A stretch of DNA of 64,000 nucleotides from Escherichia coli (GTDB lineage Bacteria > Pseudomonadota > Gammaproteobacteria > Enterobacterales > Enterobacteriaceae), in NCBI RefSeq assembly GCF_016026235.1, contig NZ_CP065613.1; one strand, 5' to 3'. The notes below the pieces were generated by a model. It saw only the letters and a list, made by a program, of their open reading frames with translations, had not been told where the DNA came from and did not search any database. This document shows positions 1-7,960 of this stretch, piece after piece (position 1 is the stretch's first letter; each line of letters opens with the position of its first letter). The position numbers were made by a program, and so were the translations under genes.

Positions 1-52
1 AAAACGCGCCCGGTGGGAGAATCGTCGTTATACATTTAACAAACTGCTCTGA
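1..52 (+). CDS. possible 3' end of an upstream gene running off the window edge (frame 2, ends TGA ~50-52)
   Basis: Open frame from the window edge to a stop; K-12 has lpxP upstream of ypdK/alaC but I cannot verify the C-terminal residues. Confidence 0.2.
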   Translation, partial: KRARWENRRYTFNKLL

Positions 53-394
53 CTCTTTACCTCCTCACATAAGCCATAATAACCTCATGGTTTTTATGGC
101 TTTTTTCTTAAGGTTTTTTCCTTCGCTGAATCTCTAATTATTACCGTCAGAAATTAAACTGTCGCCGATATGAGACACCTGTAAGTTACTAAAAGTAAAT
201 AAGAAAATGCCTCTTGTCTCGTTTCAGTTTTAGGCGTACATTAGCGCCGTCTCGAGCAGTTTAGCTCAGAATTCTGGGGTGATGCCCACGGTAAAATACA
301 GGACTTTTAAGGTCGTTTTGCCCGGTGTCAACTCACTGTATCAGGTGTAATGAAGTCATTCAGGCGTAACAGCAATTACGCGGAGAGATGTAAA

Positions 395-466
395 GTGAAA
401 TATTTCTTTATGGGCATTTCTTTTATGGTCATCGTTTGGGCCGGTACTTTTGCCCTGATGATCTAA
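395..466 (+). CDS. ypdK: small hydrophobic membrane protein, 23 aa (MKYFFMGISFMVIVWAGTFALMI), GTG start
   Basis: Short ORF with GGAGAG RBS 8 bp upstream; matches the K-12 small protein YpdK as I recall it; position between lpxP side and alaC. Confidence 0.5.
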   Translation: MKYFFMGISFMVIVWAGTFALMI

Positions 467-485
467 AAGCAAACTGTGCAATGAA

Positions 486-513
486 AAACAGGAGCCATCA
501 GGCTCCTGTTTGC
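486..513. terminator. bidirectional intrinsic terminator hairpin (aacaggagcc-atca-ggctcctgtt) between ypdK and convergent alaC
   Basis: Perfect 10-bp inverted repeat with 4-nt loop flanked by A/T runs. Confidence 0.6.
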
Positions 514-530
514 ATTTCTGACGACGGTGT

Positions 531-1769
531 TTATTCCGCGTTTTCGTGAATATGTTTGCTGCTGGCGGGTAGTAAACCGTCGGCACGGAACATCGCTTTA
601 ATCCCACGAATCGCCTGACGAATACGGTCGCGGTTTTCAATCAGTGCAAAGCGCACATGCGTATCACCATAGTCGCCAAAGCCAATCCCCGGAGAGACAC
701 AGACCTTCGCTTCGTTAAGCAATTTCTTGGCAAATTCCAGCGAGCCCATGGCAGCATACGGTTCCGGTATTTTCGCCCAGACATACATCGAAGCCTTCGG
801 CATTTCGACCATCCAGCCCGCTTCATGCAGCCCTTTAACCAGTACATCACGGCGGCGTTTGTACTGTTCAGCAATGTCGCGCACGCACTGTTGATCGCCC
901 TCCAGCGCCGCAATCGCCGCCACCTGCAACGGCGTAAAGGTGCCGTAATCGTGATAGCTTTTAATACGTGCCAGCGCACTGACCAGCGTTTTGTTGCCAA
1001 CCATAAAGCCGATACGCCAGCCCGCCATGTTGTAGCTTTTTGACAGCGTAAAAAACTCGACCGCCACATCGCGTGCACCCGGCACCTGCATGATTGACGG
1101 CGCTTTCCAGCCATCGTAGACGATATCGGCATAGGCCAGGTCATGGACCACCAGCACATCGTAGCGTTTCGCCAGCGCCACAACCTTTTCGAAGAACTCC
1201 AGTTCCACGCATTGCGCGGTTGGGTTCGACGGGAAGCCGAGGATCATCATCTTCGGTTTCGGATAACTTTCACGAATGGCGCGCTCTAGTTCGTTGAAGA
1301 AATCGACACCTTCCACCAGCGGCACTGAGCGTACCTGCGCCCCGGCAATCACCGCGCCATAAATATGAATGGGGTAGCTTGGATTCGGCACCAGCACCGT
1401 GTCACCATGATCCAGCGTCGCCAGCATCAGGTGTGCCAGCCCCTCTTTCGAACCAATGGTGACGATGGCTTCTGATTCCGGGTCGATTTCAACGTCGTAG
1501 CGATCCTGATACCAGCGGGAAATGGCGCGACGTAGCCGCGGAATGCCGCGTGAAGTGGAGTAACCATGCGTGTCCGGGCGCTGGGCCACAGTACATAATT
1601 TTTCGACGATATGCGGCGGAGTCGCACCGTCCGGGTTACCCATACTGAAATCGATAATATCTTCGCCGCGCCGACGCGCAGCCATTTTCAGTTCAGCGGT
1701 AATGTTAAAAACGTAGGGCGGGAGACGATCAATGCGCGTAAAGCGACGTTCAGGGCGAGTGTCAGCCAT
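531..1769 (-). CDS. alaC: glutamate-pyruvate aminotransferase, PLP-dependent class I aminotransferase
   Basis: 412-aa ORF with aminotransferase motifs ([12 protein letters not shown]); recognised as AlaC/YfdZ. Confidence 0.9.
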
Positions 1770-4604: not shown

Positions 4605-5462
4605 ATGAAAGCACCAGGCTTGCCCGCCGATCAACAATTTTTCGCCGATCTGTTCAGCGGCCTGGTGCTTAACCCGCAACTACTGGGGCGCGTCTGGTTT
4701 GCCAGCCAGCCTGCCTCGTTGCCGGTGGGCAGTTTATGTATTGATTTTCCCCGTCTGGATATCGTGCTGCGCGGCGAATACGGCAATCTGCTGGAAGCAA
4801 AGCAGCAACGTTTGGTGGAAGGAGAAATGCTGTTTATTCCGGCGCGCGCGGCTAATTTACCGGTCAACAACAAACCGGTGATGCTGTTAAGCCTGGTGTT
4901 CGCTCCGACCTGGCTTGGGTTATCGTTTTACGATAGCCGTACCACGTCGTTGTTGCATCCTGCTCGCCAGATCCAGCTTCCCAGCCTGCAACGCGGTGAA
5001 GGTGAAGCGATGCTTACCGCCCTCACCCATCTTAGCCGTTCGCCGCTGGAGCAAAATATCATTCAGCCGCTGGTGTTAAGTTTGCTGCATCTTTGCCGTA
5101 ACGTGGTGAATATGCCGCCGGGCAATTCGCGGCCGCGCGGCGATTTTCTCTATCACAGCATTTGTAACTGGGTTCAGGATAATTATGCCCAGCCGCTCAC
5201 CCGCGAGAGCGTGGCGCAGTTTTTTAATATCACGCCCAATCATCTGTCAAAACTGTTTGCTCAGCATGGAACGATGCGTTTTATCGAGTATGTGCGTTGG
5301 GTGCGAATGGCGAAGGCGAGGATGATTTTGCAGAAATATCATCTGTCAATTCATGAAGTGGCACAGCGTTGCGGTTTTCCGGATAGCGACTATTTTTGTC
5401 GCGTTTTCCGGCGTCAGTTTGGTCTGACGCCGGGAGAGTACAGCGCCCGTTTTCAGGGCTAA
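4605..5462 (+). CDS. ypdC: AraC/XylS-family transcriptional regulator
   Basis: 285-aa ORF with C-terminal AraC HTH (FPDSDYFCRVFRRQFGLTPGEY). Confidence 0.8.
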   Translation: MKAPGLPADQQFFADLFSGLVLNPQLLGRVWFASQPASLPVGSLCIDFPRLDIVLRGEYGNLLEAKQQRLVEGEMLFIPARAANLPVNNKPVMLLSLVFAPTWLGLSFYDSRTTSLLHPARQIQLPSLQRGEGEAMLTALTHLSRSPLEQNIIQPLVLSLLHLCRNVVNMPPGNSRPRGDFLYHSICNWVQDNYAQPLTRESVAQFFNITPNHLSKLFAQHGTMRFIEYVRWVRMAKARMILQKYHLSIHEVAQRCGFPDSDYFCRVFRRQFGLTPGEYSARFQG

Positions 5463-5464
5463 CG

Positions 5465-7960
5465 TCAGAAGGTTAATTCTGTTTCCAGCAGCGTCAGGAT
5501 ACTTTGTGCATCTTGCGCGGCAAACAACGACTGGCGGAAGTTTTTATTCACCAGTTTACGCGCCAGCTGCGAGAAGACTTTCACATGATTCATCCCTTCG
5601 TTAGCACCCAGCGTCAGCATGATCACCAGTTCGACTTCGCCCATTTCTGACTGCCAGTCAACCGGTTTCGCCAGCCGGGCAATGCTGATACTGGAATGAC
5701 GGATCCACTGAGATTTGGTGTGCGGGATCGCCACGCCAAAACCAACGCCAGTGGTGACAATCTCTTCCCGCTGCCAGACATCCTCTTCCAGCTCGAACGG
5801 ATGTTCAGTGCGCCCGTTAACGCCGAGGTTACCGCACAGGAACTGGATCGCCTGCTCTTTATTGCTAAAGGCCTGATCAACGAAGATATTCTCCAGCGCC
5901 AGCAGCGGGCGAACGTCTTCTTCCGGCGTAAAGGCGGTGAGTAACGCTTCAATTTCCTGCGCGCTGCGACATTCACACGCCTGACGTGCCAGTTCCCGAC
6001 ACGCCTCGCTATCCAGTTGACGAAGCTGGCTTTTCACCGCCGGAATGCGCGGGCTACTCATACTCAGCTCATCCAGGCCCAACCCAAGCAGTAGCGGCAG
6101 ATAACGGCTTTCACCGCCCAGTTCACCGCAAATGCCTACCCATTTGCCCCGCTGATGCGCAGTGGTAACTATTTGCTGCAACATGCGCAGGAACGATGGC
6201 GTAATCGGGTTATATAGCGGCGATACGCGCGGGTTATTACGATCGACCGCATACAGATACTGGGTCATATCGTTGGAGCCGATACTGAAGAAATCGACCT
6301 CATCGCAGAAGTGATCGATGATGTAGCACACCGACGGCACTTCCACCATGATACCCAGCGTAATCGTCTCTGCATGACGCAGGCCATCGCGCTTAAGCTC
6401 AACGATCGCTTTTTGGATCTCGCCCTTCACCCATAAGATCTGATCGAGGCTGTGGACCATCGGGATCATCAACTGGGCGTTGCCGAAACTGGCGGCGCGC
6501 AAAATGGCCCGCAGTTGAGTGCGGAACAGGCCAGCAAATTCCGGGTAAATACGTACCGCGCGATAGCCGAGGAACGGGTTCTCTTCCTGGGGAATATTCA
6601 GATAAGGAATGCTTTTATCGCCGCCGATGTCCATTGTGCGGAAGATAATCGGCTTGTCGCCCGCTGCCAGTAGCACCTGCTGGTAGGCTTCAAATTGCTC
6701 CTGCTCGTCCGGCGCGCTGTCGCGATCCATATAGAGCATTTCGGTACGGAACAGCCCGACGCCTTCCGCGCCGTTGGCAAACGCGCCAGGCGCTTCCAGA
6801 GCGGTGCCAATATTCGCCGCGATATCAATACGCTTGTTATCACGGGAATAAGCCAGCTGCGCGGCAGCCTGCGCCTGTTGTTTTTGGCGTTTATCCGCCA
6901 GCGTCTGCGCGACCTGATAATAACCGCTCACCGCGTCATTCGGGTTAATCGCCAGCACGCCGCACTGGGCGTCAAGCACTGCAGGTTGCCCGGCATAACG
7001 GGCAATCGCATCCAGCGGCAGGCCGCTCAGTACCGGGATCGCCGAGGCGCGGGCCAGAATCAGGGTATGCGAGGTGCGCCCGGTTTTCTCCAGAATCATG
7101 CCCGCAAGATTTTTTAAATCCAGGCTTAAAAACTGGCTTGGGGTTAAATCCTCGGCCACCAGAATAGTCGGTTTTTCCAGCACCAGATTGTTGCGCGGCT
7201 TCAGTTCCGGCCAGGTAATATGCAGCAACTGTTCGCTAATATCGCGAATGTCGCTAACACGTTCGCGCAGATAATCGCTGGCAGAAGCAGAAAGTTTGGC
7301 GCAAACCTGCTCCATATTGCTGATGATCGCCGCCCCCAGCCCCTGATGCTGTTCTGTCATCAGGCGACGGATATTGCCTGCAAATTCATCATCCTGAATC
7401 AGCGACAAATGGGCGCTGAGGATAGTTTTGCTTTCGCCGTCACGCTCACGCAATTGCTGGTTCAGTTGCTCGGCAAGCGTTGCCAGACTGTGCTCCAGCC
7501 GGGTGGAATCTTGCGCACTGGCGGGGATTGCCCGATAACTGTCGAGGCTGTCGCTTTGTAACAGGGTCAGCGTACCCACGCCGACGCCGCTTGCCAGCAC
7601 ATTGCCGTACAGTAAATCCGGGTTAAGGCGGCTTAATGAACGCGGCAGCGGATGCGCCGTCAGTTCTGCCTGCGTAGGCTGAACGCTGTCGCTGTCGATA
7701 AAGCGCACCTGGATGTACTCTTCCAGCACGCGCCGCGCCTGCTCTTCATCGCTGCCGCTAATGTTCAGGCTGCAACTGTCATTAAATAGGGTGCCGGTGC
7801 CAATCAGCGCCAGCGAGCTTTTGGCATCGGCCTTTGCGTTCTGTCGATGGTTAATAAAAGTGATTTCGCTTTGCCACTGGCTGCACTGTTCTTTAAGTTC
7901 CCACGCCGGACGAGCATGTAGACCGTTAGGCAAAGGACAGAGAAATTGAATCGTTAACAT
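5465..7960 (-). CDS. fryA: PTS multiphosphoryl transfer protein (HPr-EI-IIA fusion), fructose-like PTS
   Basis: 831-aa ORF with PEP-utilising enzyme motifs (GGRTSHTLILAR, MVEVPS) homologous to PtsI plus HPr and IIA domains. Confidence 0.85.
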   Translation of the reverse strand: MLTIQFLCPLPNGLHARPAWELKEQCSQWQSEITFINHRQNAKADAKSSLALIGTGTLFNDSCSLNISGSDEEQARRVLEEYIQVRFIDSDSVQPTQAELTAHPLPRSLSRLNPDLLYGNVLASGVGVGTLTLLQSDSLDSYRAIPASAQDSTRLEHSLATLAEQLNQQLRERDGESKTILSAHLSLIQDDEFAGNIRRLMTEQHQGLGAAIISNMEQVCAKLSASASDYLRERVSDIRDISEQLLHITWPELKPRNNLVLEKPTILVAEDLTPSQFLSLDLKNLAGMILEKTGRTSHTLILARASAIPVLSGLPLDAIARYAGQPAVLDAQCGVLAINPNDAVSGYYQVAQTLADKRQKQQAQAAAQLAYSRDNKRIDIAANIGTALEAPGAFANGAEGVGLFRTEMLYMDRDSAPDEQEQFEAYQQVLLAAGDKPIIFRTMDIGGDKSIPYLNIPQEENPFLGYRAVRIYPEFAGLFRTQLRAILRAASFGNAQLMIPMVHSLDQILWVKGEIQKAIVELKRDGLRHAETITLGIMVEVPSVCYIIDHFCDEVDFFSIGSNDMTQYLYAVDRNNPRVSPLYNPITPSFLRMLQQIVTTAHQRGKWVGICGELGGESRYLPLLLGLGLDELSMSSPRIPAVKSQLRQLDSEACRELARQACECRSAQEIEALLTAFTPEEDVRPLLALENIFVDQAFSNKEQAIQFLCGNLGVNGRTEHPFELEEDVWQREEIVTTGVGFGVAIPHTKSQWIRHSSISIARLAKPVDWQSEMGEVELVIMLTLGANEGMNHVKVFSQLARKLVNKNFRQSLFAAQDAQSILTLLETELTF

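Follow-up and report, generated by a model that had tools for sequence, protein, structure and literature searches.

We conclude, with a probability of about 0.9, that the region around positions 395-466 of the DNA analysed here is best explained as a whole by the gene ypdK (b4680), which is transcribed from its own promoter with a structured leader, starts at a GTG and encodes a one-helix peptide. The DNA is a stretch of 64,000 nucleotides from Escherichia coli (contig NZ_CP065613.1 of RefSeq assembly GCF_016026235.1, one strand), referred to below as the window. The open reading frame (ORF) is already known and routinely annotated, and is not a discovery; the work of Hemm et al. in 2008 is said to show its expression. 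A preliminary description, made from the letters, had pointed to a hydrophobic ORF of 23 codons that begins with GTG behind a plausible ribosome binding site, and had called it 'ypdK-like'. The ORF and its GTG are as described, with a GGAG 9 nt upstream, and the ORF proved to be ypdK itself. The accompanying remark that gene callers easily miss small membrane proteins is right in general but does not apply here, ypdK being annotated in every E. coli record inspected. The features of the region are collected in Table 1.

Table 1. Features at the ypdK locus (window coordinates).
Feature	Position	Strand	Description
lpxP 3' end	1-39	+	Last 13 codons, stop TAA 37-39; mapped from RefSeq
tpke70, right-hand end	53-103	-	EcoCyc candidate sRNA, 436 nt; runs leftwards, antisense to the lpxP terminator and 3' coding end
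lpxP intrinsic terminator	71-106	+	Inverted repeat, arms 71-84/89-102; T-run 101-106
Conserved block upstream of promoter	137-213	+	Inverted repeat and A/T-rich tract; alignment of 25 Enterobacteriaceae loci
ypdK promoter (predicted)	214-248	+	-35 TTGTCT 214-219, 17-nt spacer, -10 TACATT 237-242, discriminator AGCGCC 243-248
ypdK transcription start site (TSS)	G249	+	Kim et al. 2012 (PMC3415461, supplement file 2)
Helix H1	250-270	+	5'-end stem-loop
Helix H2	276-286 with 324-334	+	Long-range; predicted to bury Shine-Dalgarno-like GGGGUGAU
Helix H3	364-381	+	Hairpin GCGUAA/UUACGC abutting the Shine-Dalgarno sequence
Shine-Dalgarno (SD) GGAGAG	382-387	+	Core GGAG 382-385, 9 nt 5' of GTG 395
ypdK CDS	395-466	+	GTG start, 23 codons, TAA stop 464-466; RefSeq, NCBIfam NF033437, purifying selection
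ypdK/alaC hairpin	486-514		Perfect 11-bp inverted repeat (arms 486-496/501-511) between convergent stop codons
alaC (alanine transaminase)	531-1769	-	412-aa ORF, RefSeq; convergent with ypdK, stop at 531

Identity of the gene was established from several sides. In a RefSeq record 100% identical to this DNA (strain FDAARGOS_943), the CDS ypdK (WP_010723117.1, 'membrane protein YpdK') covers exactly window 395-466, while the lpxP end falls on window 39 and alaC on 531-1769. The encoded peptide (MKYFFMGISFMVIVWAGTFALMI) is identical in all 23 residues to the product of K-12 MG1655 b4680, located at 2496921-2496992 (NC_000913.3 coordinate = window coordinate + 2,496,526). Both loci also have in common the GTG start and the position of the gene 3' of lpxP and convergent with alaC; the flanks in the window strain differ from those of K-12 at a few bases. 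The NCBIfam model NF033437 (YpdK equivalog) matches the peptide at 57.5 bits (cut-off 30, E = 9.4e-16) and over its full length, residues 1-23 on model positions 1-23 of 23; Pfam holds no family for the peptide. Of 5426 complete E. coli genomes, 5422 match the first 560 bases of the window, with lpxP, ypdK and alaC as the features beneath, and the 72 ypdK bases likewise occur in 5422/5426. In a 2010 citing paper (PMC3009722), ypdK is given as one of the 18 small ORFs of Hemm et al. and its product as a putative single-transmembrane peptide.

ORFs of this size are common, and the first 2.5 kb of the window hold 36 of at least 20 aa, so that a 23-codon ORF has no significance by its mere presence; that of 395-466 comes from its conservation and annotation. 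To follow this conservation we used 80 loci carrying close AlaC relatives, one per species, and sought the peptide in six frames. A ypdK ORF was found directly after alaC, on the opposite strand, in 75 of the 80. These loci span Enterobacteriaceae, Erwiniaceae and Serratia, and the carriers belong to Escherichia, Citrobacter, Salmonella, Enterobacter, Kluyvera, Cedecea, Buttiauxella, Pantoea, Erwinia, Mixta and Serratia. The non-carriers include the E. albertii locus (L003), which stops at a contig edge. The locus of Erwinia endophytica (L067) has only a C-terminal ypdK fragment, and no ypdK ORF was found at the alaC loci of Symbiopectobacterium (L077), Lonsdalea (L080) and a contig labelled Pseudomonas resinovorans (L079). 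Since the gene is absent from two Pectobacteriaceae loci (L077 and L080) and reduced to a fragment in L067, it was lost from, or never present in, some Enterobacterales. As a separate observation, the AlaC protein encoded at L079 (NZ_AUIE01000007.1, label Pseudomonas resinovorans DSM 21078), which has no adjoining ypdK, shares 91% identity with its E. coli counterpart. This is unexpectedly high for Pseudomonas and suggests horizontal transfer, contamination or mislabelling.

The 75 relatives and the window together give 76 versions of ypdK. All 76 start with GTG, nearly all have a GGAG 7-9 nt 5' of it, and the length is 23 codons in 56 and 24 in 20. Conservation of the 23 codons across relatives, which the preliminary description had proposed as a check, was then quantified over 69 distinct nucleotide versions. 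Column entropy at codon positions 1/2/3 is 0.61/0.195/1.18, and summed pN/pS is 0.28 in the ypdK frame vs 1.14 and 2.22 in the shifted frames. Synonymous and nonsynonymous changes are thus clearly unequal, contrary to the outcome that the preliminary description had named as refuting it, and ypdK is therefore protein-coding and under purifying selection. Residues Y3, M6, G7, S9, G17, T18 and F19 are invariant, and K2, W15, L21 and M22 almost invariant. That the ORF arose by chance in intergenic DNA, as the abundance of such ORFs might have suggested, is refuted by the in-frame pN/pS and is also at odds with the annotation, with NF033437 and with the 75/80 synteny; we give this reading practically no weight. 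What is now on record is a YpdK peptide conserved across at least three Enterobacterales families, always with a GTG start and always adjoining alaC.

The stretch ahead of the gene had been presented as about 340 bp of AT-rich, non-coding sequence with no long ORF. The gap between the lpxP stop and the ypdK start is in fact 355 nt. It is moderately AT-rich (GC 0.375-0.45 over 1-500 vs 0.52-0.58 inside alaC) and lacks a long ORF as stated, the only ORF above 40 aa touching it being a 94-aa minus-strand one at 356-640 that overlaps the alaC end. It is not featureless, and not empty either, because it contains the terminator of lpxP, followed by a conserved promoter and the leader of 146 nt. The same intergenic neighbourhood houses tpke70, reportedly a candidate sRNA of Rivas et al. 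2001 (EcoCyc G0-8906). It lies on the minus strand, covers neither the leader nor the ORF of ypdK, is unrelated to that gene, and has no entry among the RefSeq features of K-12. The lpxP terminator coincides with a Term-seq 3' end at K-12 2496632, i.e. window 106, which the Term-seq table marks as antisense to 'tpke70' (Adams et al. 2021, PMC7815308). The published tpke70 sequence starts with AAAGCCATAAAAACCATGAGG, the complement of this terminator (PMC6172242 supplement), and its listed 5' end therefore looks less like a mapped end than like the boundary of a prediction window. In vitro, tpke70 is reported to bind the mcrA, torT and glnK mRNAs (PMC6172242).

Judged by its sequence, the ypdK promoter is of sigma-70 type and conserved across three families. 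In an alignment of 25 Enterobacteriaceae loci, strong conservation begins at about window 137. Of the 75 relatives checked, 73 showed the promoter element, those from Pantoea, Erwinia and Serratia among them, as TTGnnn or TTTATT, a spacer of 17-18 nt, TAnATT and then a discriminator rich in GC. The two misses are L026, which stops at a contig edge, and L012, which escaped the pattern although the element is present in the alignment. Upstream, an imperfect inverted repeat TGTC-N10-GACA lies at 160-177, within 159-178, centred some 80 nt before the start site. It reads GTGTCG-N8-CGACAC in Citrobacter, Salmonella and Enterobacter, and its conservation follows ypdK also where another gene lies upstream. 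With its GC-rich GCGCC discriminator and the A/T-rich tract that precedes the -35, the ypdK promoter resembles promoters repressed by ppGpp/DksA, e.g. rrnB P1; by this analogy, which is no more than a lead, it may be controlled by growth rate or ppGpp. A CRP site upstream of the promoter was considered and is not claimed: Pantoea and Serratia carry TGTGA-N6-like sequences, whose distance from the promoter is unlike that of the Enterobacteriaceae repeat. The LexA box has the consensus CTGT-N8-ACAG, and no such box was seen on reading the ypdK promoter region. A weak promoter-like site is present on the minus strand at 165-137. We also observed a 10-nt perfect complementarity between 145-154 and 514-523 (CGUCAGAAAU/AUUUCUGACG), i.e. 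between the region preceding the promoter and the bases just past the terminator. Chance alone would give about 0.15 such 10-nt matches in 560 nt; the arm at 145-154 is outside the transcript.

Published transcript maps fit the ends deduced from the sequence. The promoter predicts a start at G249, in exact agreement with the TSS of Kim et al. 2012 (PMC3415461), given as NC_000913.2 2494797 and assigned to ypdK with a 5' UTR of 146 nt. The sequence printed upstream of this TSS ends ...GGCGTACATTAGCGCCG, which places it at window 249; its read count is low (18). The same work lists a second, weaker plus-strand start (12 reads, NC_000913.2 2494578, ypdK with a 365-nt UTR). This second start corresponds to window 30, within the last lpxP codons, and a transcript from there must read through the lpxP terminator. 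A tiling-array study found a plus-strand transcript at 2494795-2494997 (window 247-449), increased by log2 +1.06, about 2-fold, after UV. At the other extremity, Term-seq reports a 3' end at K-12 2497040, 'primary' for ypdK and equal to window 514 (Adams et al. 2021, PMC7815308). Nothing is listed at the ypdK coordinates in the Cappable-seq supplement. From the TSS at 249 and the 3' end at 514, the ypdK transcript is therefore 266 nt and monocistronic, composed of the 146-nt leader, the 72-nt ORF and a 48-nt tail ending in a hairpin.

The 266-nt RNA is strongly structured, with a folding energy of -90.6 kcal/mol vs -68.8±5.2 in shuffles (z = -4.2). An RNA that is so short and so folded, that has a long conserved leader and that stems from a region once flagged as the sRNA candidate tpke70 might be read as a non-coding small RNA whose ORF is incidental and untranslated. 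We consider this extremely unlikely. The codon-position pattern and the low pN/pS are found solely in the ORF frame, and the SD and GTG are conserved in the 76 versions (GGAG in nearly all). Within E. coli the ORF (72 nt) is better conserved than the leader: it reaches 99% identity or more in 4771 of 5423 records, a 72-nt leader segment in only 1071 of 5414. Finally, the annotated tpke70 is on the other strand, over lpxP.

For the ypdK mRNA, comparison of related leaders supports three helices through compensatory changes. Cells were paired in 79% of cases for H1 in Enterobacteriaceae (31-39% in slid controls), in 93.5% for H2 (39-57%) and in 88.6% for H3 (7-58%). H1 has a counterpart in Erwiniaceae, at the same position with another sequence, where 92.6% of cells are paired (33-52%). 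Counts of double-change cells, which derive from related sequences and may be inflated by a shared ancestry that the shuffles keep, were 12 for H1 in Enterobacteriaceae (7.9±2.1 in shuffles, 18/500), 21 for the Erwiniaceae counterpart (5.5±2.1, 0/500), 28 for H2 (13.5±3.5, 0/500) and 30 for H3 (10.0±2.5, 0/500). Slid controls provide the fairer yardstick, and for every helix they lie far below the observed pairing. Erwiniaceae leaders likewise end in a helix whose 3' strand reaches the SD. Two further stretches are conserved and unpaired, GAAUUCU at 269-275 and CUGUAUCAGG at 336-345, the latter being UAUAAUCAG in other genera.

H2 encloses a variable insert (288-322). In locus L002 (the GTDB representative E. 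coli, SCPM-O-B-8794; 5369-5487) the leader is 33 nt shorter than in the window. Some 30 nt of the variable stem-loop inside H2 are missing from it, and H1, H2, H3 and the ORF are intact. H2 also accounts for two conserved blocks of the leader that had at first resembled an SD-like motif (GAGGUGAUGC) and a second promoter. Several candidates were discarded. A conserved upstream ORF starting at GUGAUG (279/282) varies in length and sequence and is missing in Enterobacter, the motif being an H2 strand; no conserved upstream ORF was found in the ypdK leaders compared. A second promoter at the TATAAT-like block around 335-345 has a left part that is the H2 3' strand, has a poor hexamer in E. coli and has no TSS listed. 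A pairing of GCUCAG with the downstream CUGAGG is not kept in genera with a different H1 sequence.

In the window itself, a 23-codon ORF is open at 279-350 (GTG 279 / ATG 282), with its start region paired in H2 and its TAA overlapping an ATG at 350. This ATG is in frame with ypdK, and ORF 350-466 is open in both the window and E. coli locus L002. Together with the overlap of stop and start, this could mean that the real product in E. coli is a 38-residue protein. Most genera outside Escherichia, however, have an in-frame stop 1-3 codons before the GTG, and the 38-codon ORF is therefore not conserved; neither are its 15 extra residues, nor is ORF 279-350 conserved in other genera. The extension must moreover be translated through helix H3, and RefSeq and NCBIfam both use 23 residues. 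We regard the longer form as very improbable and retain the 23-residue YpdK.

A search of the leader against Rfam 15 returned no family match near a gathering score, only two chance-level matches to a plastid 3' UTR family and a snoRNA family (E = 0.14 and 0.88), both far below theirs. Of the whole locus, the conserved three-helix leader alone may be undescribed. It is conceivable, although rather doubtful, that it is an undescribed cis-regulatory RNA responding to a signal, a protein or an sRNA, that the 266-nt mRNA has a dual function, or that a link between YpdK and alanine/pyruvate metabolism lies behind the pairing with alaC. In any case the 'empty' spacer contains a conserved promoter and a three-helix leader with ends agreeing with the published transcript maps, and the leader helices, together with the invariant residues of the peptide, are concrete targets for mutagenesis.

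On the 3' side, the preliminary description had placed the ORF upstream of alaC and had given it a terminator shared with that gene. The first statement does not stand in the transcriptional sense: ypdK lies beyond the alaC 3' end and is convergent with it. The second stands in part. A hairpin does follow ypdK and the mapped ypdK 3' end falls at its edge, at 514; that alaC also uses the 486-511 hairpin as terminator is what the sequence suggests, the minus strand reading the T-run UUUUUCAUU past the hairpin. The excerpt of the Term-seq supplement consulted (PMC7815308) gives no minus-strand 3' end at the hairpin. A hairpin is found between ypdK and alaC in every relative, with stem sequences that differ by genus, e.g. 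ACAGGAGCC/GGCUCCUGU, GGGGCGAC/GUCGCCCC and GGGUCAGG/CCUGACCC. Which gene precedes ypdK varies (Escherichia, Salmonella and Enterobacter have lpxP there, the remaining genera other genes), and the ypdK-alaC pairing is almost invariant. This near-invariance may reflect function. It may equally reflect the little room left for a neutral breakpoint by a gap of only about 60 nt that consists mostly of a terminator hairpin. Beyond alaC, no part of the first 2.2 kb is richer in AT than the divergent alaC-ypdA region (1770-2145; GC 0.335-0.35), which carries several promoter-like hexamer pairs on both strands.

The peptide itself fits one transmembrane helix, as had been predicted for it: mean Kyte-Doolittle hydropathy over residues 4-23 is 2.15, and K2 is the sole charged residue. 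Conserved residues fall into two clusters, MKYxxMGxS and WxGTFxLM. A conserved helical face was sought and was not significant (conservation moment 0.13 vs 0.12 in shuffles); as the conserved residues do not cluster on one face, this analysis does not speak for a single binding surface. The literature searched yielded no functional data on YpdK.

From these elements the following course of events can be proposed. Transcription from the promoter at 214-248 yields an RNA from G249 to 514 that carries ypdK alone. At its 5' end, H1 may shield the mRNA from 5'-end-dependent decay, in analogy to 5'-terminal hairpins known to act as such guards, e.g. in the ompA leader. H2 would bury the SD-like sequence, and H3, ending where the SD begins, would keep the true SD single-stranded. 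Translation from GTG 395 via GGAG is predicted to give a 23-residue hydrophobic peptide, nearly all of it helix; the GTG start in 76/76 versions suggests a tuned initiation strength. By the positive-inside rule, the peptide would insert in the inner membrane with its N-terminus and K2 cytoplasmic. As its most likely mode of action we tentatively propose, by analogy with other small membrane proteins and at somewhat less than even odds, that YpdK acts within the bilayer by binding a larger membrane protein.

Some of the same features are those of the type I toxins TisB, ShoB, ZorO and DinQ, and YpdK might thus be a toxin whose translation is limited by its leader and by a nearby antisense RNA. 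In favour of this are the small size and hydrophobicity of the peptide, the length and structure of the leader, and the rise after UV, which recalls the SOS-induced tisB and dinQ; the weak minus-strand promoter-like site could be placed on the same side. We nevertheless find this reading very unlikely. Positions 1-560 are without a complementary segment beyond the two terminator hairpins and the one chance-size 10-nt match, so that an antisense partner is lacking; no LexA box match was seen in the promoter region; and the conserved H3 leaves the SD unpaired. Type I toxins are usually patchy in distribution and often multi-copy, whereas ypdK is single-copy, vertically inherited and in fixed synteny, under purifying selection across three families.

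The reading of ypdK as the gene of a small membrane protein brings it closer to another group. MgrB, AcrZ, MgtS and CydX are small single-pass regulators of the inner membrane that bind larger membrane proteins. YpdK is without sequence similarity to them and without a Pfam family; like them, it has fewer than 50 residues, one hydrophobic helix and a short transcript of its own. YohP, from the same discovery set as ypdK (Hemm et al. 2008), has, in contrast to YpdK, reportedly been studied for its membrane insertion and for its effects on membrane and nucleoid.
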